DNA of 64,000 bases. It comes from Xenococcaceae cyanobacterium. GTDB lineage: Bacteria > Cyanobacteriota > Cyanobacteriia > Cyanobacteriales > JBFRWF01. A model generated the notes under the pieces. The model ran no database searches and was not told the DNA's origin. It saw only the letters and a program-made list of their open reading frames with translations. Shown here in pieces: positions 29,711 through 62,482 of this stretch. Where the stretch lies: contig JBFRWF010000273.1 in the NCBI GenBank assembly GCA_051439465.1, forward strand, positions 46,666-110,665, written 5' to 3'. A program made the translations under genes and the position numbers. The first letter of the stretch is position 1. The number at the start of each line of letters is the position of its first letter.

Positions 29711-29811
29711 ATTGGGTTTATGGAACGATCGCTTTTCATTGTCTATCAAAACTAAAAGTTAGCTCGTTACGCTCTGGCTCATGAATATAGAAGATTCCTT
29801 CAAGCCATTCC

Positions 29812-29866
29812 CCCACCCCACACCCATGGTTAGTTGTTTGTAGGCAAAGGTATGGGTTGGGGTGGG
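29812..29866. repeat. Long imperfect inverted repeat between the convergent Rpn-like and dnaN genes (possible bidirectional terminator)
   Basis: CCCACCCCACACCCAT (29812-29827) pairs with ATGGGTTGGGGTGGG (29852-29866), giving 15 bp with one bulge and a 24-nt loop. No U-tract follows. Confidence 0.35.
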
Positions 29867-29931
29867 TAGCTTTCCAATCCCTTCTTCACTACTGATCTGC
29901 GTCGCCATCAAGTCTATCGGGTCCGGCTGGG

Positions 29932-38245: not shown

Positions 38246-38379
38246 AGAAATCGCGCTTGCGAGAATTTTTATTTCCGCTAGCAAATCTTAGCATGAATGA
38301 ATGGCAAAATCTTGTGTCGGAGAGCAGATTGACTTAAAATAAAGGAAAGATTAGAGTCTGGCTAGGCTAGCAAAAACTG

Positions 38380-38951: not shown

Positions 38952-40220
38952 ATGCTCCCGCAAATACTAACAATTTCCCACCTTCCCGCCACGCCTTACA
39001 CCATACTGCGGCTCGATTACCTGATTATTTGCCAAGACGACTACTGTGCCGCCAAAATACTGTCCCTATTTGAAGCTTGGTCTGAGTCTAAGCGAGACGC
39101 AGTCGAACAAGCCAAATACCACAATAAAGCGGCTGCCAAAGAAGGGCTCGAGCCAACTCACGACGAAACAACTTGGCTTTACAACACCCTTGAGAACATC
39201 AGGCAACGGCTCTTGGAAGAATACAGTGTCAAAACTATCAACAAAGCCTTGAAAACCTTAGTAGACCTGGGTTTTCTCCAAACTCGATTTAACCCTAACC
39301 ACAAATGGGACAGGACGAAGCAGTACCAGTTTCAGACTGAAGCCGTCCAAACCGCTATTTACCAGATTACCCAAGAGCAGCTTGAGCGATATATTAGCCC
39401 GAAGGCTGAAACCCTTGATTTTCTGCATTTGGTAAATTTACCAAATGCATCTGGTAAAAATACCAAATCGAAAGCGCAAATTTACCAAATCGAAAGCGCA
39501 GATTTACCAAATCGATCTGGTAAAAATACCAAAGCAATACCAAAGAGTCATAACAAAGAGTCAATCAAAGAAAACACACCCATCGCTGCCCCTTCGCCCC
39601 AGCACCCCACCCAAAGTGTGTGTGTAGCAAAAAATGATGAAAAGGTTGAAAAGGTCAAAGCGATTGAAAGCAGCGAAGAAGAAGTTAGCCAAGATGAGTC
39701 ATTTACTGCCCAAGACGAAAAAACCAACTCAACACCTTTGGCTGAAGTCACAGCTTTAGATCGAAGTTCGGCTGTATCGCTAAATAACAATAAAACTTTA
39801 AAGTCTCAGAAAAGGCGACAACTCTCGGAGTTCCAGCAATGGAAGCAGCAGATAGAGCGAATCGAGTGGGAGGCTTTCATTAACTGGAAATCAGAGCAAG
39901 CCCCTGCTGATATCCGTGACCGACTGGGGTGGGCATACAACACCCTCAAGGCAGATTTAGAACGAGCCCAGCTTTCTTTGTCGAGTTTTCGACAAGAAAA
40001 AGCGCAGTCTAGGCAACCATCTGGCTCTCGCACGAAGCCCGATGGGACTCCCAACTTTGAAGCTTGGGAGATGGAGCAACACATTGAGGTGGCAAAGCAA
40101 TACCTGGCAAACAGTGTTGCTTTCCTGCGAGAGCAGTCCTGGCACAAAGACTGGGTGGAATTTGTGAACGTCACTTTCCCCAACTTATTTACCGAGGTTA
40201 ATCAGGAGGGACTGTCATGA
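38952..40220 (+). CDS. Putative replication initiator (winged-helix-like N-terminal domain, low-complexity linker, C-terminal domain), translationally coupled to dnaB
   Basis: ATGA overlap with dnaB at 40217-40220. The N-terminal ...SVKTINKALKTLVDLGFLQTRFNPNHKWDRTKQYQF looks like a wHTH. An iteron-like array lies inside the linker-coding region. I recognised no specific Rep family. Confidence 0.55.
   Translation: MLPQILTISHLPATPYTILRLDYLIICQDDYCAAKILSLFEAWSESKRDAVEQAKYHNKAAAKEGLEPTHDETTWLYNTLENIRQRLLEEYSVKTINKALKTLVDLGFLQTRFNPNHKWDRTKQYQFQTEAVQTAIYQITQEQLERYISPKAETLDFLHLVNLPNASGKNTKSKAQIYQIESADLPNRSGKNTKAIPKSHNKESIKENTPIAAPSPQHPTQSVCVAKNDEKVEKVKAIESSEEEVSQDESFTAQDEKTNSTPLAEVTALDRSSAVSLNNNKTLKSQKRRQLSEFQQWKQQIERIEWEAFINWKSEQAPADIRDRLGWAYNTLKADLERAQLSLSSFRQEKAQSRQPSGSRTKPDGTPNFEAWEMEQHIEVAKQYLANSVAFLREQSWHKDWVEFVNVTFPNLFTEVNQEGLS
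39424..39535. repeat. Dense array of direct and inverted repeats built on a TTTACCAAAT core, inside the initiator-like ORF
   Basis: Perfect 26-bp palindrome TGCATTTGGTAAATTTACCAAATGCA (39424-39449). Inverted repeat TTTACCA-N7-TGGTAAA occurs twice (39438-39458 and 39504-39524). 22-bp tandem A(A)T(T)TACCAAATCGAAAGCGCA lies at 39457-39500. A 34-bp repeat lies at 39436 and 39502. About 8 core copies fall within 112 bp. Confidence 0.8.
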
Positions 40221-42037
40221 TTAATAGCGATCGCCTTCCTCCTGAAAATATCGAGGCTGAAGCAGCCATCTTAGGGGGAATTTTACTCGACCCAAGAGCG
40301 ATGGAGGAGGTAGTTGACATCCTGACTCCAGACACATTTTATGTCAGCGCTCACGGAGAAATCTATCGAGCAGCTTTGACGTTGTTCCGTGAAGGGAAGC
40401 CAACGGATTTAATGATGGTCACCAGCTATCTAGCAGACCATGAGAAGCTCGAGGGAGTTGGAGGAACTAGCAGACTAGCCACTCTTGTACACCGAACGGT
40501 ATCTGCGATTAACATAGACCGTTATGCTGCCTTAGTCGTTGATAAGTATCTGCGGCGGCAGCTCATTAAAGAAGCCAATGAGATTGCGGCATCTGCTTAC
40601 GACAACTCCAGAGACTTTGAAGAAGTTATTGACGAAGCCGAACAGAGAATTTTTACAGTTGCCCAACATCGTCCGACTCAAGAAGTCGAACCCGTTGGAG
40701 ATATTTTGATTCGTAACTTCAACGAGATTGAGCAGTACGCTAACGGTGTTGTTCAGCCGGGACTAAATACCGGACTCACTGAAATTGACCGCATCACTGG
40801 CGGCTTGCAGCGGCAAGACCTGATTATCGTCGGTGGCAGACCGAGCACTGGAAAAACGGCTCTCTCGACTAATCTGGCATACAACATTGCGCTGCTGCAC
40901 AATCTTCCCGTGATTATCTTCAGTTTGGAGATGTCCAAGGAGCAGTTGACCTATCGTCTGCTATCTCCTTTGGCTCGAATTGAATATGAGCGACTCAAAG
41001 CCGGACGCATATCGCTAGGTGAGCTGACTCCCCTGACACTGGCGATTGGCCAACTCTCTGAGCTACCGATCTTCATAGACGACACTTCCAATCCTCCCGT
41101 GCTCGAAATCCGGGCTAAAGTGCGACGGATAGCAGCTCAGCACGGTCAGTTGGGATTAGTGCTGATTGATTATCTGCAACTGATGAGTGGTTCGGACTCA
41201 TCGAACCGAGTCCAAGAGTTAGATAGGATTAGCCGGGAGCTCAAACAACTGGCTAAAGACTTCAATGTGCCCGTAATGTGTTTATCGCAGCTCCATCGGG
41301 GGGTGGAGGGGAGGCAAGACAAACATCCCATGATGTCTGACCTCAGAGACTGCCTTGCGGGTGATGCTCTTGTTACCAATGCAGAAACAGGTGTTCGGGT
41401 CTCTGTTCGAGAAATAGTTGAAAAGGGGCTGCGTTTCAATGTATGGGCTATCAACAGTGAGTGGAAGTTAGTAAGCCGTCCGATTGTAGATGCGTGGGCA
41501 GTAGGCACTCAGACAGTCTACAAAGTGACGACGCGAACTGGTCGAACTCTTCGATGTTCTGGTGGACATCGCCTGATGACTCATGATGGATGGCGACAGC
41601 TACGCAATTTATGTGTGGGGGATGTTGTAGCTTTGCCACGGTGTTATCCTGCACCGAATCAGGGGCATGGGGTCACTTTTGCCTTTTGCCTTCCGCTCAG
41701 CGGTGACCCAATACTTCAGCGGCGGGCAAGCTCTGATTTGTTGTGGGATGAGATTACTTCCATTTCCGCAGACAGTGAAGAGATGGTATACGACCTGACC
41801 GTCGAAGAACTTCACAATTTCTGCGTTGACGGTTTTGTTACCCACAACAGCGGTGCCATTGAGCAAGCAGCAGATTTAATTGCGCTTTTGTATCGCGAAG
41901 ATTATTACAAACCTGACTCCCCAGAGCGAGGAATTGTTGAGGTTAACTTTGCCAAGCACCGAAATGGACGGACTGGCATCGTCAAGCTTTTGTTCGAGAA
42001 AGAATATTCCCGTTTTCTTGACTTGTACTACCGATAA
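40217..42037 (+). CDS. dnaB: Replicative DNA helicase DnaB containing a mini-intein
   Basis: N-terminal PPENIEAEAAILGGILLD, Walker A GGRPSTGKTAL, SLEMS, LIDYLQLM. The spliced junction would read MMSDLRD/SGAIEQAADL, the canonical DnaB motif. Confidence 0.9.
   Translation: MINSDRLPPENIEAEAAILGGILLDPRAMEEVVDILTPDTFYVSAHGEIYRAALTLFREGKPTDLMMVTSYLADHEKLEGVGGTSRLATLVHRTVSAINIDRYAALVVDKYLRRQLIKEANEIAASAYDNSRDFEEVIDEAEQRIFTVAQHRPTQEVEPVGDILIRNFNEIEQYANGVVQPGLNTGLTEIDRITGGLQRQDLIIVGGRPSTGKTALSTNLAYNIALLHNLPVIIFSLEMSKEQLTYRLLSPLARIEYERLKAGRISLGELTPLTLAIGQLSELPIFIDDTSNPPVLEIRAKVRRIAAQHGQLGLVLIDYLQLMSGSDSSNRVQELDRISRELKQLAKDFNVPVMCLSQLHRGVEGRQDKHPMMSDLRDCLAGDALVTNAETGVRVSVREIVEKGLRFNVWAINSEWKLVSRPIVDAWAVGTQTVYKVTTRTGRTLRCSGGHRLMTHDGWRQLRNLCVGDVVALPRCYPAPNQGHGVTFAFCLPLSGDPILQRRASSDLLWDEITSISADSEEMVYDLTVEELHNFCVDGFVTHNSGAIEQAADLIALLYREDYYKPDSPERGIVEVNFAKHRNGRTGIVKLLFEKEYSRFLDLYYR
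41351..41848 (+). other. Mini-intein (166 aa, no homing-endonuclease domain) within dnaB
   Basis: It starts CLAGDALV (block A; Cys at codon 379, tgc at 41351) and ends ...LHNFCVDGFVTHN, followed by a Ser +1 nucleophile. The flanks rebuild the SDLR(D/E)SG.IEQ.AD helicase motif. Confidence 0.85.
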
Positions 42038-43495: not shown

Positions 43496-43517
43496 TCACC
43501 AGTCACCAGTCACCAGT
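43496..43517. repeat. Heptameric tandem repeat TCACCAG x3 (STRR-like)
   Basis: Read directly, immediately downstream of the VirB9-like gene stop. Confidence 0.7.
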
Positions 43518-43520
43518 TTC

Positions 43521-44360
43521 TTAGGAGTGCTGATGACTGATGGCTTGTTTTTCTTCTAGGTCGGTTGAGGGGACTTCCGGTTGTTTTGTAGGAAGAAGCT
43601 CGGCAGGGGAAGGGCGATATATTTCAAAGGCAATCTTAGCAAGTTCGATAATCACTGATAGCTCTACTCCAGCAAGTTTAGCGGCTGAGGCTAGGGTGGT
43701 TTCTTGGTTGCGTGCAATAGCGATAAATTCTCGCACGTTAAACACCACCGGATCGTCGGCGGTTGTATAGCCTTTTTGGATTGCTACTTGTAGTCCTGTT
43801 TCTACATCATCGAGGGAGGCACTGCGACCTTGACCAATGTTAATGACTGGAGAAATGGCAATTCCTGGAACAATCTGGACTCCTAAATGGGTGGGAGTGC
43901 CGACGCTGTGAAGAATCTGAAAGTTGTAGAGGCGTTGTGTTCTTTCTGGGTCAATGGTTTTGACCACTAAGTTGGTAATCGGCGCTGTGGTAGCACCGGG
44001 GAACGCCAGGGGTTGAATCGGTCGCAAGAATATGGTTTTAGCCGTTCCACTGTTTAATTCGGTGTCGGTGTTAAAAACCACTCTAGAGGCATCGCCGAGA
44101 CCGATGTAGGTAATGATTTCGTTGGTTTGGGAAAAGTCGATAGCAGTGGCACGCCCTGGATAGACCTCAACATCGATAGCCATTTGAGAGCCAATGCCAC
44201 GGTTAACTCTTTGATAGCTGAGATTGGTCAGTTGAGGTGTGAAGGTGGGGGTAATCTGTTGACCAAAAGCAGGGTTGATGTGAGTAATAGCCGCGAGCGC
44301 TGCTATGGTTGTGCCGAAGAGGAAGTGTTTGACGGTCTTTTGAAGAAAGTCGGGGGTCAT
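43521..44360 (-). CDS. VirB9/TrbG/CagX-like T4SS outer-membrane-complex protein
   Basis: Signal peptide (TTIAALAAITHINPAFG). The segment VEVYPGRATAIDFSQTNEIITYIGLGDASRVVF...IFLRPI...ITNLVVKTIDPERTQRLYNFQIL follows the VirB9 N-domain pattern (t.I.F...E.I..v..GD...w.v....l.vKP....TNL.V.T..R.Y.F.L). Confidence 0.65.
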   Translation of the reverse strand: MTPDFLQKTVKHFLFGTTIAALAAITHINPAFGQQITPTFTPQLTNLSYQRVNRGIGSQMAIDVEVYPGRATAIDFSQTNEIITYIGLGDASRVVFNTDTELNSGTAKTIFLRPIQPLAFPGATTAPITNLVVKTIDPERTQRLYNFQILHSVGTPTHLGVQIVPGIAISPVINIGQGRSASLDDVETGLQVAIQKGYTTADDPVVFNVREFIAIARNQETTLASAAKLAGVELSVIIELAKIAFEIYRPSPAELLPTKQPEVPSTDLEEKQAISHQHS

Positions 44361-44365
44361 GATGG

Positions 44366-45874
44366 TTATTGAGAAATGCGAACAAAGCCATTGATGGTAA
44401 TTGAGGTTTCAGTACCAACGGGGACAATGGCAACGTTAGGACGACTTAATAGTTGTTTGATTTGTTGGTCTGAGCGGTTTGAGATTCTCTGGGCTAAAGG
44501 ATTGAAAAAGCCATCCAGGACAGCCGACCAAATTTGAGGTTCTCGGCTGCGGATAACGGTAGAGCTGGAGGAGCCGCCGAAGGTACTGTTGGAAAAGGTT
44601 GAGGTTTGTTCGGGTTCAGTAAATACTTCACCGACCCGTCCGATGCCTGAAAGTACGCTAACCAGTAAGTCTTGGGAGGCAATGTCTGGACCAGAGTCAA
44701 AGTAGTCTTGGGCAATTAGGGGTTGTCCGTCTTTGCCTTGGATTAAAATTGTGCCGGGGGGAATTGCCTCTTGCTGGATTTCACCTTGACGATTGGGATA
44801 GACAAGGGCGATCGCTGTTGCTTGTACCAGGCGATTCCTTTCACCGACTATATTCGTTTCGGCAATGAGTACTGTCCCTGCTCTTAAGGCGACTGAACCA
44901 TCGGTGGCAGGAACATCAGCAGTTAGGGTGACCGCAAAGCGATTGTAGAGTTGTTCGCCGCTTCCAGAGTCCCAAATTAGGGGAACGGAAACCCGACTGG
45001 GTGCTGATGTGCCGAAGGCGATTTCTTTTTTGGTGTCGGTGGTTTGTTGTACTCTGGTACGATTTAAAATCCCTCTTGCACCTCTACTCAGTCGGTTAGG
45101 GGAATCGCTTTCATAACCAATATTGATGACAGGGATTGTCAGGGGTGTTGGTTGTAGTTGAGGGGTAGGTGTTGGTGAGGGGTTATCGGTGTTGGAAGTT
45201 TCTGCTTCCGTTTCTTCGATATCTGCTTTACCTCTGGTTTGACCTAATGCTGCCAGTTGACTCCATTGTTCAAAAGGGTCAACTTTTTCTACTTTTTCAA
45301 CAGGGGTAGAAGGAGTGGTGATAACAGGACGTGGTGCTTGTCGCACTGTGGTAGGGGGAGGAGAAGGATTGGAGGTTCTGGCTGGTCTGGGTGTTGGTTG
45401 TTTAGCTTCTGGTGCTTCTGGTTTTTCTGGCTCTTTTGGTTCTGGTCGTTTGGTGGTCCGAATAACTTCTGGCTGGTTTCTTCTTTGCTGATCTTGGAGT
45501 GCTAACTTAGCGCGAAAATCAGGCTTTTCTTCAGGGATTACCGGGTTTGGTTCAGGTGTAGGTTTTTCTGCTACTTGTTTTATTGGTTTAGGCTGAATCA
45601 TGAACCAGATTCCTAGTGCCAGTAGCATTAATCCTCCGGTTATAAACAGTACCGTGCCTGCTCTAAGCGTCCCTCGTTCTGAAGCAGGTTTCGGTTCGGG
45701 TTGCTCATAGTCTTGGACTATTTGGTATTCTTGGTCGAGTAGAAGTGGAGCGTCAGGGTTGTAGCCAGCGATTTCATTTTCTTCGATTGAGTCAAGGTTT
45801 TGTTGGGCACTTTCACGCTCATTAATGTGACCGTTAGCTTCGGTCGTGTCTGGTGTGATGGTAAGTTCTTCCAT
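44366..45874 (-). CDS. VirB10/TrbI-like T4SS protein
   Basis: Cytoplasmic N-terminus, one TM helix (VLFITGGLMLLALGIWFMI), a long Pro-rich linker (PEPKEPEKPEAPEAKQPTPRP), and a C-terminal beta-rich domain with AGTVLIAETNIVG...IPPGTILIQGKDGQPL. Confidence 0.6.
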   Translation of the reverse strand: MEELTITPDTTEANGHINERESAQQNLDSIEENEIAGYNPDAPLLLDQEYQIVQDYEQPEPKPASERGTLRAGTVLFITGGLMLLALGIWFMIQPKPIKQVAEKPTPEPNPVIPEEKPDFRAKLALQDQQRRNQPEVIRTTKRPEPKEPEKPEAPEAKQPTPRPARTSNPSPPPTTVRQAPRPVITTPSTPVEKVEKVDPFEQWSQLAALGQTRGKADIEETEAETSNTDNPSPTPTPQLQPTPLTIPVINIGYESDSPNRLSRGARGILNRTRVQQTTDTKKEIAFGTSAPSRVSVPLIWDSGSGEQLYNRFAVTLTADVPATDGSVALRAGTVLIAETNIVGERNRLVQATAIALVYPNRQGEIQQEAIPPGTILIQGKDGQPLIAQDYFDSGPDIASQDLLVSVLSGIGRVGEVFTEPEQTSTFSNSTFGGSSSSTVIRSREPQIWSAVLDGFFNPLAQRISNRSDQQIKQLLSRPNVAIVPVGTETSITINGFVRISQ

Positions 45875-45932
45875 GTTGTTTCTTGACGCTATTTAAATTT
45901 TGTCTGGGAAAATACCGAATTCAGAATTCGGT

Positions 45933-46646
45933 TTATTGGTTAGGGTCGAAATCAACAATAGATTGAATTTCTAATCCAGATATTCTCATTTGTTCAATTA
46001 CTTTTTCTACTTTATTGGCATCATCTTCTAGAGTTGATATGGGAACTTCAACCGCTTTGATGGTGAAGGTTTTATTGAAGTTAATTCTTTCTTCCCCTTT
46101 GTCGGTATCGAGCATAATTCGGGTGGCAATTACGTCTATTTCCCAAGTTGTTGGGCTAGTTTGTCTGGGTTCTGAGTAGTATTCAACATAGACGGCGGAT
46201 TCTAAGCGACCTGCGAAGACTTCACTAGGGACGAGTTTAGCTAGCTCTTTGAGGAAGGATTTGCCAAATTCAGCCTTCATTGCTAAAGAAGCTGCCCAGG
46301 CATTGACAGGAACTCTGCCGCCATCTTCGAGTTTAATTCCTGGATCTGGTGCTTCGGTTCCAGAGATTTTGCCATTCCAACTGAAGGTTAAACTGAGCCA
46401 ACTTCCAACAAAATTTTTGATGATTTTGGGTTCTCGATAATTGCCGTCTCTTTCTTCAATTCGCCTAGATGTGCCGTCAGCTAATTGCACAAATGTTACT
46501 TTTCTTTGAGAGAGATTTTTATTGCTAAATGACTGTTGGAGAAAGGCAAGGCTGAGGAGAAAAAAAGCCAAGGCGAGTCCTAATTGTCCGATAACTATTT
46601 TATTTTTTGTTTCTGGGATAATTTCTTTGGGTGTTTTCAGGTTCAT
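45933..46646 (-). CDS. VirB8-like bitopic T4SS protein (tentative)
   Basis: Single N-terminal TM helix (IVIGQLGLALAFFLLSLAFL) plus a ~190-aa periplasmic domain. Size and position fit VirB8. No strict motif. Confidence 0.45.
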   Translation of the reverse strand: MNLKTPKEIIPETKNKIVIGQLGLALAFFLLSLAFLQQSFSNKNLSQRKVTFVQLADGTSRRIEERDGNYREPKIIKNFVGSWLSLTFSWNGKISGTEAPDPGIKLEDGGRVPVNAWAASLAMKAEFGKSFLKELAKLVPSEVFAGRLESAVYVEYYSEPRQTSPTTWEIDVIATRIMLDTDKGEERINFNKTFTIKAVEVPISTLEDDANKVEKVIEQMRISGLEIQSIVDFDPNQ

Positions 46647-46668
46647 GGCTTTTCACAAAAGTCAGAAT

Positions 46669-47748
46669 TCAGATGAATTTACTGGCTGCTAAAACTGCGC
46701 TACTCAAAATGTCGGTCAGTTGTTTAGTGCTTGAAGAGATGCCTCTATACAGAGCGATTCCACCGCCTCCGGCGATTAAAGTTGCCAAGATGGGGGCAAA
46801 TACGGCTAGGAAAAAGAGGAAGGCGACATCGGTAATTAACTCAGCATTGGAGTTGACAATTACTACTGCGGTTAATCCCACCACAATGTTGTAGCCAAGC
46901 TGTAATCCGAATAGGGAGATAAATCCAGTCAACCAGGCAAAGATGGGTCGTCCTTGTAGCGGGAGTAAGGACAGTCCCATAGCGATTGGGGCAAAGGCGG
47001 CTGTTAGTAGGAGTGCAGCTTCGAGGATGTTGACAAATGCCCACTGTATGGCTCTGAGAATGAACCGGATGATGGGGAGAGCAATATTTCTAAAGACTTC
47101 TACACCAAATTCACCACTGACAATACTTTTAATGTTGGTTGCGTCTAATAAGGATTGACCGAATCTGCGCAGGGTTTCTAGAGGTCCTCCGTTTTGTGCT
47201 TCGGCTTCATCAATGATGGCTAAGGCTTGCTCTTTTTTGTCATTCCAGCAGTCAATTAGTTCTTGTCCTCTTTCGCCAAGACATTCGCTGTACAAAGTTT
47301 CAAGTTGTTCTTTGGCGGCACTGCTAATAGTAATGTCGCTGATGGCGGTTCTGAAGGTGAACTCTCCCATTTGAATTTCTGTAACTCCTTGGACTTGAGC
47401 GTAGCCAACAGAGCGTATGAACTTCACGCTCTCAGCTAATACAGCGCCATTACCACCGAGGAAAATAACTATGACGATGGGCCAGATAAACATTGATACC
47501 AGTTTTGACCAGGAGCGGTTTTCTATGGCATCTTTCCCTTCAGTTGCTGCCAGGTAGAGAACAGATATTCCTGCTAGTATCAGTCCAAGTCTAACTAGAG
47601 CCAGCCATAGACCTGATTCAGAGTATCTGAGTAGGGTAGTCCAGAGTGCATTCCAAGACTGTACAGTATTTTCGGACAATTCGATGGCATCTCTGAGTGT
47701 GTCTAGTGCCTGTCCTGATGTGTTGGTTGCTGCTTGTGCGAGTAGCAT
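46669..47748 (-). CDS. VirB6/TrbL-like polytopic inner-membrane T4SS protein
   Basis: 359 aa with at least 6 predicted TM helices and a central loop, located between the VirB4-like and VirB8-like genes. Confidence 0.55.
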   Translation of the reverse strand: MLLAQAATNTSGQALDTLRDAIELSENTVQSWNALWTTLLRYSESGLWLALVRLGLILAGISVLYLAATEGKDAIENRSWSKLVSMFIWPIVIVIFLGGNGAVLAESVKFIRSVGYAQVQGVTEIQMGEFTFRTAISDITISSAAKEQLETLYSECLGERGQELIDCWNDKKEQALAIIDEAEAQNGGPLETLRRFGQSLLDATNIKSIVSGEFGVEVFRNIALPIIRFILRAIQWAFVNILEAALLLTAAFAPIAMGLSLLPLQGRPIFAWLTGFISLFGLQLGYNIVVGLTAVVIVNSNAELITDVAFLFFLAVFAPILATLIAGGGGIALYRGISSSTKQLTDILSSAVLAASKFI

Positions 47749-47753
47749 TTGTT

Positions 47754-47802
47754 AGGAGGTGGTAGGTGGTAGGTATTGGGTGATAGGTGGTAGGTGGCAG
47801 GA
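47754..47802. repeat. Heptameric STRR-like repeat (GGTAGGT-type, ~7 units) inside the T4SS gene array
   Basis: GGAGGTG GTAGGTG GTAGGTA TTGGGTG ATAGGTG GTAGGTG GCAGGAG, read directly. It is intergenic between the 270-aa gene and the VirB6-like gene. Confidence 0.75.
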
Positions 47803-47827
47803 GTCGAAATTTCCTAACACCTAAGAC

Positions 47828-48640
47828 CTAAAAGTTGTCAAACAATTCTTCTGGAGAAACGCCTTCTGAGTTATTGTTTTCGCCGACTGAACCTAGTGTC
47901 ATACCTCCAGGCATTTGCAACAGTCCTGCTTGGGTTGTGGAAGCTCTTCCTGCTGCGGCGTTTTCACGACGTTGAGCGGTGTTTTCTTCAGACAGTTCTT
48001 CAGCTTGCTGGGCGTTGAGGAGATTGGCTAAGGCCCGATCTACCTGAGCCTGTTGGTTTTGTTGAATGATTGTGCCTTGTCTTTCTGCATTTAATGCTGC
48101 CTGCCTGGACAGGTTTTGCATAATCTGTTGCGTTACATCTAAGTTCTGGGATTCTTCTCCTAGCTGTACGCTTTCTATAACGTTGGCTTCAACTGCCTTG
48201 GCTGTAGTTTTCAGAGTTGTTTGTGCTTCTGGGCTGAGGGTGGCATCGTTAGCGATTTGAGTGGCTACGTCTTGTTCAGTTTTTTCTGCTAAATCTTCTT
48301 GGATGCTATAGGAATCTCCGGGTTTATTTTCTAGGATTCCAGAAAGTTCAGCTCCATTTTCATTGGTATTTTGCCCATTCCCAAAAATGTCGCTGAAAAT
48401 TTGGCCTAAATCTGGTATTTCAAGGTATTTTACAAAGGAGTTAAGCATTTCTTTGAGAGAATTCAAGAGATTGACCCCCTCTCCTTGAATTTGCTCGACT
48501 GTGCTTTCTATTGTCGTCTCTTGCTGATTTGATTGGTCTTGGTTTTGAGCTTGGGCAGGATTGGCTATTAACCCGATTAACAATATAGTTGCTGCCCAAA
48601 TTTTTGCCAGATTTTTTTGAGGTTTTAGCAGGTTTTTCAT
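47828..48640 (-). CDS. Secreted Gln/Asn/Glu-rich protein (possible VirB5-like minor pilus or periplasmic component)
   Basis: Signal peptide MKNLLKPQKNLAKIWAATILLIGLIANPAQA. 4-nt overlap with the upstream VirB4-like gene. Confidence 0.55.
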   Translation of the reverse strand: MKNLLKPQKNLAKIWAATILLIGLIANPAQAQNQDQSNQQETTIESTVEQIQGEGVNLLNSLKEMLNSFVKYLEIPDLGQIFSDIFGNGQNTNENGAELSGILENKPGDSYSIQEDLAEKTEQDVATQIANDATLSPEAQTTLKTTAKAVEANVIESVQLGEESQNLDVTQQIMQNLSRQAALNAERQGTIIQQNQQAQVDRALANLLNAQQAEELSEENTAQRRENAAAGRASTTQAGLLQMPGGMTLGSVGENNNSEGVSPEELFDNF

Positions 48641-51600
48641 GGGGTTACTCCTGTTTGAAAAATAAGGTTATCTGTTTTGGTCGGTGCAAGTTTTCTTGAA
48701 CTTGGCTGCTTTCTGCCTATTTTCTCTAAAGATTGCCCGTCTTTGATGGCTTTTACGTACTCCTCGGTAAACTGTTTTAGTGCTAGTAACTGACCTCGAA
48801 GAGTGTCAGGGTACTGAGCCATAATTCGTTCGCGAGCTTTTTGTTCAGCTTGATTGTTAGCCACAGTCGCTAATACCATTTCTCCTGGATAATAGCGACA
48901 TTGCCAAAATCTTCCACTTCGTTCAATCAGCCAATTGGAGTATAGTTCTGAAGAGCGAGGGAGGAAGTGTTCTGTGGAATTTTGGCTGATGATTTCCGGT
49001 AGGTATCCTAATCGTTTAACCCAGGAAGCTGCACCATTGGCGGTTAGTCGTCCTGTAATGCGGTAAACAGTATTCTGCATAATCTGCGCCCCAGCACTAC
49101 AGTCGCAAATACTGTCAATATCTTGAGCCAGCAAGAGTACGCCGATGCCGTTTTTTCTTCCGACGGCACAAAGTTCGCCAACCGCTTCGGCAAATCCGTT
49201 ACGCTTGAACAGGACGCTTAATTCATCTCCTACAAACAGGCTTCTAGGATGGGATAAGGCATTGCGAATGCAAGCAGCATGAGCGTTGATTGCCATTAGG
49301 TACTGGTCTTGTTCATTACTCAGTCCACTCAAGGCAAAAAATTTGATAGCTGGTTCTGGGGAAAATGTGCTAGGTCTGCCAATGGCTTTACCTAAGGATG
49401 AGGTTAGCAAAGCATTACATTTGCTGACAATTTGGTTAATAGCTATTCGGTCTATTTCTCCAAAGTTGCGCAGATTCAGTTGTTCTTTGGTGCAGAACTT
49501 TAGGAGGTCTTTTAGGGTAGGGATTTCCTGCCATTGGGGAGACTTCCATCCCTTTTCAAAGGCTGTATTATAGCGCTCGATAATGTCTGGGTCATTGAGA
49601 AAATTTTTCAGCGTCAAGAGGATGATACTGTCCACCCGCTGTGCTAGTTTTGGGTCGTTAATTTTGCCCATACTAATGCTGGTTAAAGCTTTACGAATGA
49701 ACTCTTTCCATTGCTCTAGGCGGGGGGCGCGGTCTTCTTTATCAAAACGTCTCAAATCGGGGGTTTCGAGTAAGTTTGAACTTCCTTTGGTAATGTCGTA
49801 GTATGCTCCTTTGTCCCCTAAAAGCTTGACTGCTGTTTCAAATGTGCTACCGTTTCCCGATGAAATATCCATGCCGACGACCGGGATATTGGCGGCTAGG
49901 GCATCGAGGACAAATCGCCAGCCAAGCACGCTTTTACCTGAGCCAGATTCTCCAGTAATAATTGCTCTGCTGGTCTGGTTGTGAATCAGGTCAATATAGA
50001 TGGGTTTGCCGCTTTGAGTTAGGAATTCAACTCCTCTTTGATCTAAATCGCGGGCTGCGGTTAGGGGTAGAATTCCAGAGGTGGTTTCAGTATCAAAAGT
50101 GAGGCGGCGTTCATTGATTAAAGAACTACTGTGGAGTAGCCAGCTAGTAGTAATTGGCAGACTCTCTAGCCAAATTGTCCAAGCAATGTTTCGTTCTCTG
50201 AGGACTTTAGCACTGCCGAAACTATTGGAGAGCATCATGCAAGCTAAGTCAAGCTTTTCAGAGGTCGGTCGATAGACGAAGAAGGTCACCGCTGCGTTAA
50301 TTGCCTTTGCACCTTTATATAGTTTTTTCTGGGCATCAAAGCTTTCTTCGGCTTTGACTTCTGCCCCAACATCTCGTCCCTGACCTTTAGTTAAGGCGCG
50401 CTGTCTGGCACTTTTGGACTGTTTTGCCTGTTTGGCTAGGTTGTCTTTGACGACAGTGTTGGGTGCAGCGCTAATTTCAACCACAGCTTCAGTGTCATAG
50501 ACATGGGTTTTACTCATGATTGTCCACAGCCACTTGAGCTGTTCGCGGGTGTTAATCCAGGCTTCTGGCTTTTCCTCCATTGTCAGCACGGCACATTTTT
50601 GTCTTTTTCCGGGGAGCAAGATAGAATCGTCAGTGCCGTGATGTTCTGGGCAGGATGAGCGACCTTTAAAGCCTTCGATTAAGACTGTGCAAGCGTGTTT
50701 TTCGCTCGTTTTATCGATTTTCAAGTCATAGCCTGATGGGGTTTGGAGCAGTTGCATCAGTTGGGGAATGGGGGGTGCGGCGGTGGCATTGAATTTTTGC
50801 CAAATCCACTGCCAGAGTTCGTCAGCGCTACAAGGTTTGATTTCTAAGCCAATTTTGGTATTCAGTAGTAGTTCCCACCGGATATAGCCTTCTTCAAAGG
50901 ACTTCACCAGTAATTGTTGGTAAAATTGTTCTCTGTAAATCCGTTTATTGCCTGTAAACCATTCCATGAAGCTGTTTAAGGCTTCGCAGCCACCGTTAAT
51001 GATTTTGCTGAGGAAATCGTTAGACTTAGCGCCTGATTTGTCATTGAATGTCCAGGTGCAAAAGACGATCTGGTTCCAGACTTGACGAGTGCCATTGAGG
51101 GTTAGTTCTTGGATTCGTTTTTGTTCGTTTCTAATTAGCACTGAGATTGGTTTCAGGTGGCAGTTGTCGGCGAGTTGGGTGAGTTGTTGTTGGCGATCGC
51201 TATCGTTGCTGTAGCAGCCGGTGTGGAAGGTCATTTTTTCGCCAGGGAGGATGTCTTTGAGTCCTTCTTCTAAGGCGCTAGCTGCATTACTAATTTCATC
51301 GCGGTATAGGATATTGTGAAGACCTTGAGTTAGAAATCCGAATACTACTTGGTACTGATTTCCTTGATTGAGGAGGTAGCCGGAGACTGTACGTCCATCT
51401 TTTTGAATGTTGACTAGACAAATGAGGTCTTGGTAATTCTGAAAAGGCATGAATCGTTTTTTCTGACCTGTTTGTGTCTGTTTGATGACTGGTTTGAGTT
51501 TGACGGTGACATCGGAGTCTTTATAGCGAGTGCGAAGGGGTTGGGGTCTGAGTTCTGGAAGAGGAGAGAGGAAGAGGAGGTTGCCATTACACCATTCATG

Positions 51601-51858
51601 ACCGGGTGGATGCCTGAATTTGTCGATGAATTGGTGGGGCTTGGTTCCTGTTAATAACCACCAACTGACGATTAGCCAAAAGCTAACTATCAAGAAGCAA
51701 GGCATTCCGAGACTAAACAAGCCGTTGGTGACGATGTAGGACAGGATGACAATTATTCCCCAAGGAATAATTTGGTCGGCAGGGATAAATCCAATACTGG
51801 CTTGTTTTCCCAGGATTTTATTGACGTAAACTATGTCCTTATCTGGGTCTTTGAGCAT
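48637..51858 (-). CDS. virB4: VirB3-VirB4 fusion-type T4SS ATPase (TrbE/VirB4 family)
   Basis: Two N-terminal TM helices (VirB3-like), Walker A ITGESGSGKSV, Walker B LFVGDELSVLF. Length 1073 aa. Confidence 0.85.
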   Translation of the reverse strand: MLKDPDKDIVYVNKILGKQASIGFIPADQIIPWGIIVILSYIVTNGLFSLGMPCFLIVSFWLIVSWWLLTGTKPHQFIDKFRHPPGHEWCNGNLLFLSPLPELRPQPLRTRYKDSDVTVKLKPVIKQTQTGQKKRFMPFQNYQDLICLVNIQKDGRTVSGYLLNQGNQYQVVFGFLTQGLHNILYRDEISNAASALEEGLKDILPGEKMTFHTGCYSNDSDRQQQLTQLADNCHLKPISVLIRNEQKRIQELTLNGTRQVWNQIVFCTWTFNDKSGAKSNDFLSKIINGGCEALNSFMEWFTGNKRIYREQFYQQLLVKSFEEGYIRWELLLNTKIGLEIKPCSADELWQWIWQKFNATAAPPIPQLMQLLQTPSGYDLKIDKTSEKHACTVLIEGFKGRSSCPEHHGTDDSILLPGKRQKCAVLTMEEKPEAWINTREQLKWLWTIMSKTHVYDTEAVVEISAAPNTVVKDNLAKQAKQSKSARQRALTKGQGRDVGAEVKAEESFDAQKKLYKGAKAINAAVTFFVYRPTSEKLDLACMMLSNSFGSAKVLRERNIAWTIWLESLPITTSWLLHSSSLINERRLTFDTETTSGILPLTAARDLDQRGVEFLTQSGKPIYIDLIHNQTSRAIITGESGSGKSVLGWRFVLDALAANIPVVGMDISSGNGSTFETAVKLLGDKGAYYDITKGSSNLLETPDLRRFDKEDRAPRLEQWKEFIRKALTSISMGKINDPKLAQRVDSIILLTLKNFLNDPDIIERYNTAFEKGWKSPQWQEIPTLKDLLKFCTKEQLNLRNFGEIDRIAINQIVSKCNALLTSSLGKAIGRPSTFSPEPAIKFFALSGLSNEQDQYLMAINAHAACIRNALSHPRSLFVGDELSVLFKRNGFAEAVGELCAVGRKNGIGVLLLAQDIDSICDCSAGAQIMQNTVYRITGRLTANGAASWVKRLGYLPEIISQNSTEHFLPRSSELYSNWLIERSGRFWQCRYYPGEMVLATVANNQAEQKARERIMAQYPDTLRGQLLALKQFTEEYVKAIKDGQSLEKIGRKQPSSRKLAPTKTDNLIFQTGVTP

Positions 51859-51882
51859 GGCGTCACCTTGAATTTTTAGTCC

Positions 51883-52470
51883 TTAACCAACGAAGAGGAA
51901 GGTGACAATATCGATGGCAATGACCATGCCGAAGGCGAGTCCAACTTGTACGACAATGGGTCGCCAGTCATTCCCTTGTTGTGCTTGGTTATAAGCGAAA
52001 AGTGAGGCTGCTGCTACTAAGAGGAGAAATACCCCGCGAATTAAGTTGAAAATGAGAGTAATTATCTGGGGATCAATAGCTTGTCCTCCAGTGCCAACGG
52101 CTGCCTGTGCTAATTGTTTAAAGAATTCTTCTAGTTCTGAAAGAAAAATGGCTTGAGCAGGGGTTTCCCATACTGACAGAATTCCAGTCAAGGAAATAAT
52201 CACAGAGATAACGTGCCAAGAGCGAATTTTGCTGCCTCCTATACGCTCTAGAATCGGCACGGCTTGTGCAATCTGCCACAGACCGAAGAAAAAGATACTG
52301 AAGCAGCCTAAAGCGGCGATTAGGATAGGCTCAGTAACGGTGAAGTAAACTAGGGCCGCTAAACAAAATCCGAGGAAGGGAAGGTCAGTTTTTCTGATTT
52401 TGTATTTGGTAAAAATGCTGTTGGTATTTGAATGGTTGCGCTGGTGTTCTCTTTTCGGGGGAATCTTCAT
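51883..52470 (-). CDS. Membrane protein, C-terminal half VirB2/TrbC pilin-like (tentative)
   Basis: Four hydrophobic helices. The last two (ITLIFNLIRGVFLLLVAAASLFAY...IVVQVGLAFGMVIAIDIVTFLF) form the hairpin typical of T4SS pilins. It is the first gene of the T4SS block. Confidence 0.45.
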   Translation of the reverse strand: MKIPPKREHQRNHSNTNSIFTKYKIRKTDLPFLGFCLAALVYFTVTEPILIAALGCFSIFFFGLWQIAQAVPILERIGGSKIRSWHVISVIISLTGILSVWETPAQAIFLSELEEFFKQLAQAAVGTGGQAIDPQIITLIFNLIRGVFLLLVAAASLFAYNQAQQGNDWRPIVVQVGLAFGMVIAIDIVTFLFVG

Positions 52471-52662
52471 TTTGAGGTCACTCAGTTCAATGCACCAAAT
52501 CTAATTTGAGTGACCTGGTAAAAACTTCATACGAAGTGGTAGTTGCGATAGTTAGGTCGGATCGATCCGTTTGGATTAATGTCCTAGACAAGATGAGGCT
52601 GGCGATTGCTATCATTCCAATCGAGATCGCTTTTCCGTTGGAAAATGCAAGCGTCACTCAGT

Positions 52663-53043
52663 TCAATCTTCTCCTAAAGTCAGCCAATCGGCTTTCCTGT
52701 CCACCACTAACCGCCGTGTTTCTAGCCACTGTAACCCTATCAAAACATCGGTGACTTGTTTCCCTCCTAAGACGGGAATCGTCAACTCTTGACCATCCCA
52801 AACAACAGTTCCTTCATAGAGATTAAACTGTGCATCTCCTCGTGCTGTATACATTTCCCGTTTCCCGACAATTGACCAGCCCAAACTCTCTACATCTTGG
52901 GCATCCATTGCCAGCCAGTCAGTAAACCCAGTATCTAGCAGTGCATTAATTGTAATTACATCTCTATCAGCTGCTATCAAATCAATCTCAAAATATAGTT
53001 CACCTTTATTGCCAAAAAAGCCTTGCATCATATTCTGCCGCAA
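52663..53043 (-). CDS. Retropepsin-like (clan AA) aspartic protease
   Basis: INALLDTGFTDWLAMD contains the D-T-G active-site motif. Size of 126 aa is typical. Confidence 0.75.
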   Translation of the reverse strand: MRQNMMQGFFGNKGELYFEIDLIAADRDVITINALLDTGFTDWLAMDAQDVESLGWSIVGKREMYTARGDAQFNLYEGTVVWDGQELTIPVLGGKQVTDVLIGLQWLETRRLVVDRKADWLTLGED

Positions 53044-53348
53044 GCCCCCGTTTCATTTAGGCGCATTGCTAGTAGCTGTGGTGTCGGGTATTTCACTTTG
53101 GCTTTTTGGAAGGCAACTTTTTCATCAGGGTCAATGAAATAGTCTCCACTATCAGGCTCAATCACAATGAACCAGTCGTAATGAGCGGGGACTAATTCTG
53201 GGTAAACTCGGTCGAAAATTACCCGACAACGCTGGGCAAATGCTTTATCGGATACCTCAAGTCTGGCTAGTTCTTCAGAAGAAAGGCGAGGTCTATCAGG
53301 GAATATCGGGCTGCCAAGAGGCACTTTTCTCCGGATTTTTTGGGTCAT
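53028..53348 (-). CDS. Hypothetical protein paired with the aspartic protease
   Basis: 106-aa ORF overlapping the protease gene by 16 nt. From memory, this two-gene cassette recurs in cyanobacteria. Confidence 0.55.
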   Translation of the reverse strand: MTQKIRRKVPLGSPIFPDRPRLSSEELARLEVSDKAFAQRCRVIFDRVYPELVPAHYDWFIVIEPDSGDYFIDPDEKVAFQKAKVKYPTPQLLAMRLNETGACGRI

Positions 53349-53431
53349 TTTTACAAGTTTACGAGCGGTCTCGACATGATTCTAACCGCTCGCGCAGAGC
53401 CCTGCGCGAGCGCAAAGCAGGATGGGCAAAC

Positions 53432-55171
53432 CTATATTTCGATTTCCTGTCGCTTTTTCGCCTTGCTGGGGGTTTCAGGTTCAGTATTTTGTTCTTCTGC
53501 ATCTTCTAGGCTTTGAGGCAGATTCGTAATTGTCCTCTTGTCTTCATCGCTGAGCAAGTCATTGGTGATTTGCCATTCTTCTTCTGTTTGTACGGCACAG
53601 AATAGTTCTTCACCACTATAAGTCTCAAGGCTGACTGTTATGGAATCGTCGTCTTTGGTGGCGTAGAGGACGGCTTCTTCGCCTAGAGCGACACCGTCTT
53701 CTACCGTTTCACCGGCTGCGAGCGCTTCTTCTTCGGCGCTGTCGTATAGATGAAGCAGGGTGTTGGCACATTCTACGGCTAAGTTCTCTTTTTGGGTTGT
53801 GGTTCCAGCTGGCATGGGTTTCTGCGGTGGCTCGGCGGGTTCGGGTTCGGTGGAAATGATGAAGGGTTCATCTTCAGTGGTTATCTCTTGGGGTTGGGGA
53901 GTCTGTGTTGCTTCTGTTTTGCTCTTTCCTTCGCTGACATGGGGTTCAGTGGTTTGGCTTTCCAGTAAGGCTCCCTCCAGTGCCTCGATTCGGCTTTCTA
54001 GGGCATTTAATCTTTGGTCGATACGGTCTAAGGCAGCAGTAATTTGGGCTAGTTGTTCTGGGAAGCTGGCATTTTTGTCAATTTCAATCTTGTCGCTTTG
54101 GCCTTCACTGATGCCTGTTTGATTGATTTTCTCATTGACTTGATTGACGGCTTGGGCTAAAGCTTCACCTGCGGATTCGGTTTCTTCAGTCTCTTTTGTT
54201 TCAGCTTCTTCAGCTTCTAAGATTGCGTCTTCAGTTGGTTCGGTCAGTTGGTCAGCTCGTTCAGCCAGTTGGTCAGCTCGTTCGCTTTGAGCCTTAAGCC
54301 TTGTAATTATCTTGGCAATTTGTCGTTTTTGTCCAGCTTCTTTGGCTGCTTTGAGAATTTTCTCTGCTGATTTTTTCCCGATGAGGGCGGCGAGAAAGGC
54401 AGTTTGGGCGCTGATTCCGCCGATAGTTGTCCCATCTACCTCACTGCTTTGGCTGGCAGCTTTGGCACTGATTTGTGCTGCGCCATCGAGGATGTCGTCA
54501 ATACTTGAGTTTTGTTTTTTCTGAGCAGGTGGTTTTTCAGTTCTTGATTGTCTGGTAGTAGATTGGGCATGGGCTGTTTTGCTAGTTTTCTGGCTTTTTT
54601 GGGGTTGATCGCCATCATGGGTGTCTAGTAATTCATCTAGTTGATTACCCGTTTTTTCACTTTCGTCGAGTTGGTCAAGTAAGTCGTCAATTTCTTCATT
54701 TTTCTGAGATGAAGATTGAGACTGAGATTTAGATTTTGGGACTGGTTCATCATCGTCTAAATCATCCAGGAAACTATTTAATCGTTGGGAGGTGGACTTG
54801 GACTTACTTTTTTCAGGATTGAGTATGCTTTCAATTGCGGCGACGGTGAATCTTTTTTGTTCTTCTTCATCAAATCCCAGGTGTTGCATCATATACTTTC
54901 CGGTAGTTGAGCCGAGTTCTGGGTGGTCAGTCATGGTTAAGGTTAATCCACCTCTGCTGACTTCGACACTGATTCCGGGTTTGCCATCGGCTTCAGTGAG
55001 TTGTTCTAAAGCTTCGGCAAAGTCTTCAACTGTTGTTAGTTGTTGGTCGATGCAGTAGGCGAGGGCTTTTTCGCAGCGTTTTTTCATGTAGTTGAGGATT
55101 TTCTTTCCAGCTTGGGTATCAGCAGTCAGATATTGTGTTTTTTTTCCTTTTCTCTTGGCGTAAGTGACCAT
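53432..55171 (-). CDS. Acidic, coiled-coil-rich 579-aa protein of unknown function
   Basis: Basic N-terminus MVTYAKRKGKKTQYLTADTQAGKK, then long Asp/Glu/Gln/Ser-rich and heptad-like stretches (LNALESRIEALEGALLE). It lies between the RdRP-like gene and the T4SS block on the same strand. Confidence 0.6.
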   Translation of the reverse strand: MVTYAKRKGKKTQYLTADTQAGKKILNYMKKRCEKALAYCIDQQLTTVEDFAEALEQLTEADGKPGISVEVSRGGLTLTMTDHPELGSTTGKYMMQHLGFDEEEQKRFTVAAIESILNPEKSKSKSTSQRLNSFLDDLDDDEPVPKSKSQSQSSSQKNEEIDDLLDQLDESEKTGNQLDELLDTHDGDQPQKSQKTSKTAHAQSTTRQSRTEKPPAQKKQNSSIDDILDGAAQISAKAASQSSEVDGTTIGGISAQTAFLAALIGKKSAEKILKAAKEAGQKRQIAKIITRLKAQSERADQLAERADQLTEPTEDAILEAEEAETKETEETESAGEALAQAVNQVNEKINQTGISEGQSDKIEIDKNASFPEQLAQITAALDRIDQRLNALESRIEALEGALLESQTTEPHVSEGKSKTEATQTPQPQEITTEDEPFIISTEPEPAEPPQKPMPAGTTTQKENLAVECANTLLHLYDSAEEEALAAGETVEDGVALGEEAVLYATKDDDSITVSLETYSGEELFCAVQTEEEWQITNDLLSDEDKRTITNLPQSLEDAEEQNTEPETPSKAKKRQEIEI

Positions 55172-55439
55172 AATTTAGCCAATTTCTGTGTTTATTTGTT
55201 GGTAATTTAGTCAAAGTATTTCTGTTCTGACTTCACCTAGTTGGTGAGTTTTAATAGTCCAAATGGGTTGTCTGTGGGGATGTGGGGGTGATCCCGCGGG
55301 GGCATCTGGGAAATTGATTGATAGAGTTTGAAATGAGCGCGCCTCTCCCACGCCAAGGTTTAACAATAGCTTCAACAAAAATTGGACTAATTGACCAAAT
55401 TTTTCGGGACGCCAGAAACTTTTTGGCTAATTGAGTCAG
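55171..55439. promoter_or_regulatory. Four copies of a TAATT(T/G)AG(Y)CA(A/G)-like box in the 560-bp intergenic region
   Basis: TAATTTAGCCAA 55171-55182, TAATTTAGTCAA 55203-55214, TAATTGACCAA 55388-55398, TAATTGAGTCAG 55428-55439. Confidence 0.4.
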
Positions 55440-55533
55440 ATTCTTGGGCAGAAAATTTAGAATTTTCTCTTACTTTAAAATCACCCCAACTTTCAGCCTC
55501 CAAATTAGCTTCTCAAATCAATTTGTGAGAAAT

Positions 55534-55770
55534 GCGGGTGCAGGATGCTACAGATGAGTATCCGAGGTTGGAACCAATCTTGCTAGAGGCATGGGAGCGT
55601 TATAAACAATCGGCGAATCAAGTAGGCGACGCCCTCATGTAGGTGACTCATCTCCCCTCAGAGCGGATCTCTAGCTACCTCGAAGGGGTGGCCATTCTGA
55701 CTCCGACATCTGCTGTGTTTTTGTATGTTCTAACTCGAGGCGTGATAGAGCTTGGGGATTCCCAGTAGAC
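55534..55770 (+). pseudogene. Possible small HTH (Cro/C1-like) gene with an in-frame TAG
   Basis: MRVQDATDEYPRLEPILLEAWERYKQSANQVGDALM*VTHLPSERISSYLEGVAILTPTSAVFLYVLTRG... Support is weak. Confidence 0.2.
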
Positions 55771-62177: not shown

Positions 62178-62480
62178 ATGTTAAAGAAAATAAGCATTTT
62201 AATTGAAAAAAAAGATTCACTATACTTTGCCTACTGTCCTGAATTAGAAGACTATCAAGTTCAAGATAATTCTCTAGATGTTGTTTTTGAACAGCTTAAA
62301 CTTGCTGTCCAAAAACATCTAAAAAATTCCGATGAATCAAAAAAAGAAACAGCAGGTCAATCCATTATAAAATTAGTGGCTAAGTTTACAGAAGATCTGA
62401 CTGAAGAGGAAATTAAAAAATTCCCTACGGATGCAGCAGCACAGCACGATCATTACCTATATGGGACGCAAAAAAAATAA
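62178..62480 (+). CDS. Antitoxin (HicB-like fold N-terminus) of the adjacent PIN toxin
   Basis: ISILIEKKDSLYFAYCPELEDYQVQDNSLDVVFEQLKLAVQKHL. It ends 2 nt before the vapC-like ATG. Confidence 0.65.
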   Translation: MLKKISILIEKKDSLYFAYCPELEDYQVQDNSLDVVFEQLKLAVQKHLKNSDESKKETAGQSIIKLVAKFTEDLTEEEIKKFPTDAAAQHDHYLYGTQKK

Positions 62481-62482
62481 AG

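Follow-up and report, generated by a model that had tools for sequence, protein, structure and literature searches.

Among the eight classes of conjugation machinery, the mating-pair-formation (MPF) class MPF_C is recognised by eight specific profiles that include homologues of VirB3, VirB6, VirB8, VirB9 and VirB10, with no VirB2 homologue reported, and VirB11 is rare outside the class MPF_T (Guglielmini et al.). MPF_C coupling proteins have been linked to three known relaxase types, and the type system of the class is encoded by alr7204 to alr7213 on the plasmid pCC7120alpha of Nostoc sp. PCC 7120 (Guglielmini et al. 2011, 2013, 2014). Here, I describe a type IV secretion system (T4SS) locus at positions 43521-52470 of a stretch of 64,000 nucleotides from a Xenococcaceae cyanobacterium (assembly GCA_051439465.1, contig JBFRWF010000273.1). 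This stretch, hereafter the window, covers 64 kb of a 120,549-bp contig, about 56 kb of which lie outside it. Judged by its sequence, the locus is an intact, ordinary member of MPF_C, and it is likely to encode the apparatus by which a large conjugative plasmid forms mating pairs; the MOBP-type relaxase gene of this plasmid probably lies beyond the right edge of the window.

The locus consists of seven open reading frames (ORFs), all on the minus strand, which encode proteins of 195, 1073, 270, 359, 237, 502 and 279 aa in gene order and are separated by spacers of 24, -4, 79, 22, 58 and 5 nt. Seven co-directional genes with short gaps, and membership in MPF_C, had both been proposed in an earlier annotation that a model made from the letters of the DNA alone (the sequence-only reading), and both proposals were borne out. 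Homologues of every gene from alr7204 to alr7213 were found in the window by tblastn and hidden Markov model (HMM) searches, with seven of the homologues contiguous and the alr7212-like gene 30 kb distant. In tblastn, alr7204, alr7208, alr7209, alr7210 and alr7211 found their counterparts with E-values of 4e-7, 2e-18, 2e-24, 6e-22 and 1e-9, respectively, the 1073-aa protein was 34% identical to alr7205/alr7206 over residues 12-1049, and an HMM of the 270-aa family matched alr7207 with an E-value of 7e-11. The VirB4 sided with alr7206 (phmmer E-value 1e-171) and had no significant match to four MPF_T VirB4 proteins. A homologue of it was present on 134 PLSDB plasmids, for which every genus listed is cyanobacterial.

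The placement of VirB10 before VirB9 had been taken for an atypical order, a claim that did not hold, as this order was common to 12 of the 12 other cyanobacterial loci compared and is standard for MPF_C. Some of these loci have alr7212-like and 200-aa genes directly after VirB9, and the window can thus be read as the order of the class split in two. A VirB11-type ATPase was found by Pfam in none of the window ORFs of at least 116 aa; the lack itself had been described correctly, but it is typical of the class and not unusual. The window therefore resembles pCC7120alpha in having all ten homologues, the same seven-gene order, no VirB11 and a coupling protein of the same clade. It differs in that VirB3 is fused to VirB4, which is 34% identical to its Nostoc counterpart, whereas alr7205 is a separate gene in Nostoc; in that the alr7212-like and coupling genes, which follow directly downstream in pCC7120alpha, are 30 kb off and on the other strand; in an additional C-terminal domain on the window's alr7212 homologue; and in that pCC7120alpha carries a MOBV relaxase.

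To assign the single components, family alignments were made from 11-13 cyanobacterial loci, one alignment per component, and reference alignments of VirB2, B3, B5, B6, B8, B9 and B10 were built from eight MPF_T plasmids, giving an hhalign profile-profile matrix of all 49 comparisons (7 families against 7 references). The positional equivalent was the top reference for 6 of the 7 families, and direct family searches on the proteins of the block returned weak but mutually consistent matches. The second gene (48637-51858) encodes the 1073-aa homologue of alr7205 and alr7206, a VirB3-VirB4 fusion ATPase as the sequence-only reading had it: the protein has two N-terminal hydrophobic helices, a Walker A motif GESGSGKS at residues 636-643 and a Walker B motif SLFVGDE at residues 873-879, with weak matches to TIGR02746 TraC (1e-9) and VirB4_CagE (1e-5). 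Its N-terminus had VirB3 as the top of the seven references (hhalign probability 2.1%, E-value 0.023). The last two genes, correctly read before as VirB10- and VirB9-like, encode the 502-aa alr7210 homologue (44366-45874) and the secreted 279-aa alr7211 homologue (43521-44360). The former consists of a transmembrane (TM) helix, a Pro-rich linker (10.6% Pro) and a C-terminal barrel domain, and matched Pfam TrbI at residues 313-495 with an E-value of 5e-4, which is below the Pfam cut-off; TrbI was matched by 8 of its 12 relatives, at best with 1e-14, and VirB10 was the top of the seven references for the family (probability 19.7%, E-value 1.2e-3). The latter has a signal peptide and a Pfam CagX match of 1e-3, and its family matched VirB9 with a probability of 95.8% and an E-value of 8e-9. 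Neither the VirB9-like nor the VirB10-like family profile had a match among Protein Data Bank (PDB) sequences. Taken together, there is good support for the identities of VirB4, VirB10, VirB9 and the coupling protein.

The remaining components were assigned with less confidence. The 359-aa alr7208 homologue (46669-47748) is polytopic, a membrane protein that has at least five hydrophobic segments and a large loop; VirB6 was the top of the seven references for its family (probability 50%, E-value 1.6e-4), and one relative matched Pfam TrbL at 0.011. The 195-aa alr7204 homologue encoded by the first gene (51883-52470), also polytopic, has a long hydrophobic leader with a possible PAQA|IF cleavage site and two hydrophobic helices after it. 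Its family had VirB2 as the top of the seven references (probability 27.6%, E-value 6.5e-4, 79 columns), in an alignment which spans nearly the full VirB2 profile and in which the conserved PAQA|IF falls on the pilin leader cleavage site. The confidence in the 359-aa protein as VirB6 and in the 195-aa protein as a VirB2-like pilin is moderate to weak. The 270-aa alr7207 homologue (47828-48640) stands in the position of VirB5 and is rich in Q, N and E (12% Q, 10% N) with a signal peptide, in agreement with the secreted Q/N-rich protein that had been described; its family matched VirB5 weakly (probability 2.4%, E-value 0.02). An identification of this protein as TrbC/VirB2 was rejected, as the Pfam match spans the signal peptide alone. 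The 237-aa alr7209 homologue (45933-46646) is a bitopic membrane protein with a single N-terminal TM segment, and is a candidate VirB8 by topology, position and the literature, in which one MPF_C profile, its gene not named, was linked to VirB8/TraE (Guglielmini et al. 2014). Its family matched VirB8 with a probability of 0.5%, no reference rose above background, and no match was found in Pfam or in a profile search of PDB sequences. The profile searches that the sequence-only reading had called for on these proteins thus returned weak VirB2 and VirB5 matches for the 195-aa and 270-aa proteins and left its VirB8 label without sequence support.

Compared with VirB/VirD4 (MPF_T) systems, for example R388 Trw and those of the IncN pKM101 type, the block is nearly colinear, running from B2 through B3-B4, B5, B6 and B8 to B9/B10, with VirB9, VirB10 and VirB6 homologous by profile comparison and the coupling protein homologous as well. 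It differs from them in the lack of VirB11, of a VirB7 lipoprotein and of a separate VirB1, in having B10 ahead of B9, in a VirB4 that is not detectably similar by phmmer, and in a pilin candidate whose leader is about 100 residues long and contains membrane segments. Of the two spacers that had been described as bearing short tandemly repeated repetitive (STRR) sequences, the one of 79 nt, which separates the 270-aa gene from the 359-aa gene, does contain STRR-like heptamer arrays (47757-47801 and 47813-47831; AGGTGGT x6.4 and CCTAACA x2.7 by TRF), but the one of 58 nt (45875-45932), which lies between the genes for the 237-aa and 502-aa proteins, has a perfect palindrome, CCGAATTCTGAATTCGG, instead. 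A further heptamer array, TCACCAG x3, is located directly past the final T4SS gene (43496-43517).

The coupling protein had been placed 30 kb off on the other strand, and was confirmed there at 12196-14151 (plus strand) as a type IV coupling protein of the VirD4/TrwB family. It matched Pfam TrwB_AAD_bind (2e-29), TraG-D_C (4e-25) and T4SS-DNA_transf (4e-23), all above cut-off, is homologous to alr7213 (phmmer E-value 3e-93) and has a Walker A motif at residue 146. The window further carries ParA, ParB, a tyrosine recombinase, replication genes, two-component regulators and insertion sequences, a gene content which suggests that it belongs to a large plasmid; a megablast search of the region against PLSDB gave no match. 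That the host is a cyanobacterium is shown by an 1160-aa and a 579-aa protein of the window, which are 100% identical to AB4426_19640 and AB4426_19635 of a Xenococcaceae metagenome-assembled genome. A 3-kb Logan contig is identical to window positions 52483-55536.

What the window lacks is a relaxase. No Pfam relaxase family was matched by any window ORF of at least 116 aa, a scan of the window for histidine-triad motifs found none, the MOBV relaxase alr7199 used as a query had no match in it, and an HMM of 119 PF03432 relaxases run against all six-frame ORFs of the window reached a best E-value of 0.84, which is no match. The claim that no relaxase motif can be seen was confirmed, the sole HUH protein in the window being the IS200 transposase TnpA (20283-20699).

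The explanation most probably lies in where the window ends. At its right edge, a conserved gene for a 360-aa protein (62944-63999, plus strand) is cut about six codons before the stop; residues 1-354 are 79% identical to the Symploca homologue, and similarity to Symploca at the DNA level reaches position 63977. The closest relatives of the locus are pOSC7112.02 of Oscillatoria nigro-viridis PCC 7112, whose VirB4 is 75% identical, and Symploca sp. SIO2E9 (JAAHGS010000022), and both share the arrangement of the window, which runs from the relaxase side through the 360-aa gene, Gp157, the polymerase and the 579-aa-like gene to the T4SS genes, with the difference that a MOBP relaxase is visible in the two relatives and not in the window. 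The order in Symploca SIO2E9 is a PF03432 relaxase, DUF3768, the 360-aa gene on the opposite strand, Gp157 and further genes, followed by the polymerase, a 571-aa gene and the T4SS genes. On the circular pOSC7112.02, the relaxase occupies 255038-256621 and the 360-aa homologue 259178-260251, with Gp157 at 225-848. A relaxase beyond the 360-aa homologue was also found in Symploca SIO3C6, and the 98-kb metagenome contig ERZ1066120 encodes a PF03432 relaxase 9 kb past the 360-aa gene. Overall, a MOBP-type (PF03432) relaxase was located 0.3-9 kb past the 360-aa homologue in four relatives with enough flanking sequence. The siphovirus Gp157-like gene (61066-61716, minus strand; Pfam 1e-10; 60-67% identity in the compared loci L001, L003 and L027) is part of the conserved block that separates the relaxase from the polymerase in these relatives. 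Among plasmids whose VirB4 is 53-75% identical to that of the window, 6 of 7 were typed as MOBP and conjugative.

Given the synteny with the four relatives past the 360-aa gene, it is most probably the position of the window edge that makes a relaxase seem to be lacking. The relaxase gene would start about 0.7 kb past position 64000 if the spacing of the relatives is kept, and I consider it reasonably likely that a canonical relaxase is encoded just outside the window. By the account of the sequence-only reading itself, such a relaxase would take away the novelty of the DNA-processing step; it is seen in the relatives, not on this contig, and synteny makes it probable here. The 350-aa relaxase P0123 was considered and rejected since it sits on an unrelated contig, a scan of genome contigs with the Symploca relaxase matched Symploca alone, and a scan of viral contigs for the 360-aa gene found none.

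Several observations weigh against the reading of the locus as the apparatus of a self-transmissible MOBP plasmid, and most of them would suit a plasmid that carries MPF_C and a coupling protein yet lacks its own relaxase, being either decayed and non-transmissible or served in trans by the relaxase of a co-resident plasmid. No relaxase was found in 64 kb, and when the Symploca relaxase was searched against 5.8 billion proteins, none of the matches was attributed to this genome, whose 1160-aa and 579-aa proteins are present in that same database. The plasmid of a close relative, Leptolyngbya BL0902, is typed as non-mobilizable, as are 41 of the 134 plasmids that carry this VirB4, and most cyanobacterial plasmids with VirB4 or VirD4 were found to be without a recognised relaxase in an earlier survey (Popin et al. 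2021). The insertions of a cytochrome P450, a PIN toxin and insertion sequence elements show that the region has been rearranging, and the presence of a relaxase on this very contig is inferred from synteny, the contig beyond position 64000 being outside the data. Nevertheless, a relaxase-less plasmid appears rather unlikely, given that the T4SS genes are all intact, that synteny up to the last base of the window matches relatives with an adjoining relaxase, and that 56 kb of the contig lie outside the window. Further points against the conjugative reading are that VirB8 homology failed the profile test and that the support for VirB5, VirB3 and VirB2 is weak, and also that MPF_C is without experimental data (Guglielmini et al.), with no later experimental work found in a literature search. 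A T4SS that serves effector secretion, DNA release or DNA uptake in place of conjugation would fit a class with no experimental record and a cluster split from its coupling protein. Such a use is very improbable here, as the coupling protein is present, relaxases are linked to the locus in relatives, and the plasmid has partition and replication genes of its own with no effector-like cargo evident.

The sequence-only reading had further suggested that the DNA-processing enzyme may be of a novel type, and had pointed to large ORFs of 579, 422 and 1160 aa as unexplained. None of these is relaxase-like, and they can now be read as a probable replication initiator (422 aa), a polymerase (1160 aa) and its partner (579 aa). 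The 1160-aa protein (55770-59252, minus strand) is, by its motif and its modelled fold, a YonO/QDE-1-like single-chain, two-barrel RNA polymerase. It has an invariant DFDGD at residues 473-477, and PF05183 RdRP was matched by 19 of 40 homologues, the window protein itself being below Pfam significance. Its AlphaFold2 model (predicted local distance difference test, pLDDT, 84.5) matched plant RDR2 and Neurospora QDE-1 in Foldseek with a probability of 1.0 and an E-value of 1e-13, and the phage P32 gp64 RNA polymerase with an E-value of 2e-9. In a search of PDB sequences with the polymerase profile, the sole match was an apolipoprotein coiled coil, which was dismissed as spurious. Homologues of the window polymerase are 65% identical in pOSC7112.02 and 86% identical in Symploca SIO2E9. 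YonO-like proteins in cyanobacteria were already noted, their role not being known (Ruprich-Robert and Thuriaux, 2010). The window polymerase resembles YonO of the Bacillus SPbeta prophage, QDE-1 and RDR2 in its DxDGD metal-binding motif, in the RdRP matches of its relatives and in fold, and differs from them in being plasmid-borne, conserved beside conjugation genes and accompanied by a coiled-coil partner.

This partner, the 579-aa protein (53432-55171, minus strand), is by alignment and synteny a constant neighbour of the polymerase. It has a conserved N-terminal domain, linkers that are long, charged and disordered, a DUF7310 coiled coil, a C-terminal domain and a conserved EIEI tail; of 28 homologues, 24 have DUF7310 and 5 have an RNase H insert. 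Of 13 loci, 8 have the pair upstream of their T4SS genes, and it is missing from the 14 kb on each side of VirB4 in pCC7120alpha. Because the two genes are directly upstream of the T4SS in these loci, both were considered as a non-canonical DNA-processing enzyme inside the window, alongside the RecD-like helicase (32465-33853) and the tyrosine recombinase (37289-38284). Recombinase-related atypical relaxases exist in Firmicutes, and an integrase is found upstream of alr7204 in pCC7120alpha too. Even so, a non-canonical enzyme in the window is highly doubtful: the 1160-aa protein is a nucleotide polymerase and not a nuclease, the 579-aa protein has no catalytic motif and consists for the most part of disordered sequence and coiled coil, and no replacement is needed because relatives with the same two genes also have a canonical MOBP relaxase. 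With canonical PF03432/MOBP relaxases encoded beyond the cut gene in four relatives, the proposal of a novel enzyme is unsupported. A tentative idea, and one more apt to be wrong than right, is that the polymerase and its partner form a conjugation-linked module which may, for example, synthesise RNA on the single strand that comes in, either for priming or for early transcription in the recipient. If true, RNA synthesis on a transferred strand would give this polymerase family a role that the literature searched does not describe. A less likely variant is that a relaxase is truly absent from the contig, with nicking left to an enzyme of an unknown kind.

By analogy with VirB/D4 systems, the parts of the locus would be assembled as follows. 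VirB9 and VirB10 would form the core that spans the envelope, VirB6, VirB8, VirB3 and VirB4 would make up the platform at the inner membrane, and the coupling protein would pass the relaxase-bound single strand to the channel. The remainder of the set that is characteristic of the class, namely the alr7212-like protein, a small membrane partner and the coupling ATPase, would be supplied from the genes separated to 8.4-14.2 kb. The relaxase itself would most likely be a canonical one of the MOBP type (PF03432), encoded less than about 10 kb past the right end of the window. Both the function in transfer and the roles in assembly are inferred from these better-known systems.

The first gene of the separated part (8416-10500, plus strand) encodes a 694-aa alr7212 homologue (tblastn E-value 3e-54), for which 549 relatives were found and which is a candidate VirB1 analogue. 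Residues 59-407 are alr7212-like and are followed by an extra C-terminal domain (about 445-612) and two C-terminal TM helices. The alr7212 family looks like a cell-wall-remodelling component because relatives carry fusions to Peptidase_M23 (13 of 40) or CHAP (1 of 40), neither of which is found in the window copy, and its interpretation as a VirB1 analogue is reasonable. Most relatives share a Glu-Ser ... GxYQxMSY motif, which I take to resemble that of lytic transglycosylases, with Thr-Gly replacing Glu-Ser in the window copy. The 694-aa protein had no direct Pfam family match, its C-terminal domain matched none of the PDB sequences, and with a confident AlphaFold2 model (pLDDT 82) the Foldseek matches to muramidases (Tse3, P1 Lyz and R21) were all non-significant. 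The C-terminal domain may be lysozyme-like, and lytic activity of the window copy is doubtful. The cell-wall hydrolase that had been proposed here is thus favoured by the M23 and CHAP fusions of relatives, but not by the window copy, with neither a family match nor the Glu-Ser pair.

This gene is followed by one for a 200-aa protein (10512-11114, plus strand; tblastn E-value 2e-19), which is membrane-anchored through an N-terminal hydrophobic segment and has the same place in Allocoleopsis pMIC7113.01 (tblastn to L014 18950-19441). A DUF5895 protein (11122-12120, minus strand; Pfam 2e-44), with no homologue in the compared loci, separates the 200-aa and coupling-protein genes. The region 14175-17868 encodes a hybrid histidine kinase, which starts 23 nt past the coupling-protein gene, then a second kinase and a LuxR-type response regulator. 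A homologue of the hybrid kinase (53% identity) is encoded 2 kb downstream of VirB9 in pOSC7112.02 (L001 21205-23580), and this kinase may be a regulatory link to transfer.

The plasmid also encodes much of a replisome of its own, all on the minus strand, with genes for a PolA-like polymerase, polymerase III delta, tau/gamma, the beta clamp and the RecD-like helicase (5117-6946, 26262-31275 and, for the helicase, 32465-33853), and the same cluster is found beside T4SS genes on the Leptolyngbya BL0902 plasmid (L012). The 422-aa ORF (38952-40220, plus strand) is a probable replication initiator, to judge from a weak match to the phage replication initiation proteins of PHROG 428 (4e-5), and overlaps by 4 nt the start of the gene for a DnaB helicase with an intein (40217-42037, plus strand; Pfam Intein_splicing 8e-23). 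Compared with Symploca, the window has three insertions. A cytochrome P450 gene (59668-60978, minus strand) separates the polymerase from Gp157, a PIN-domain toxin that has a small ORF upstream (62200-62899, plus strand) is found between Gp157 and the 360-aa gene, and about 0.7 kb with ORFs of 126 and 106 aa, within 52471-53431, separates the 579-aa gene from the T4SS block. Two insertion sequences were identified, an IS200/IS605 element with a TnpA Y1 transposase and TnpB (20283-21928) and an IS630-like element with a helix-turn-helix ORF and a DDE_3 ORF (3131-4399). At the left end, an ORF of at least 952 aa runs from about 2857 off the window (2-2857, minus strand) and has an N-terminal GHKL-ATPase-like IVQNADD motif.

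The lack of a relaxase in this window gives no grounds for postulating a new DNA-processing enzyme. The alr7204 family is weakly indicated to supply the VirB2-like pilin that the class had been missing. As MPF_C has never been studied experimentally, each well-annotated locus helps to define it, and the one described here defines a sublineage in which VirB3 is fused to VirB4, the relaxases are of the MOBP type, and a YonO-like polymerase is conserved together with its partner.

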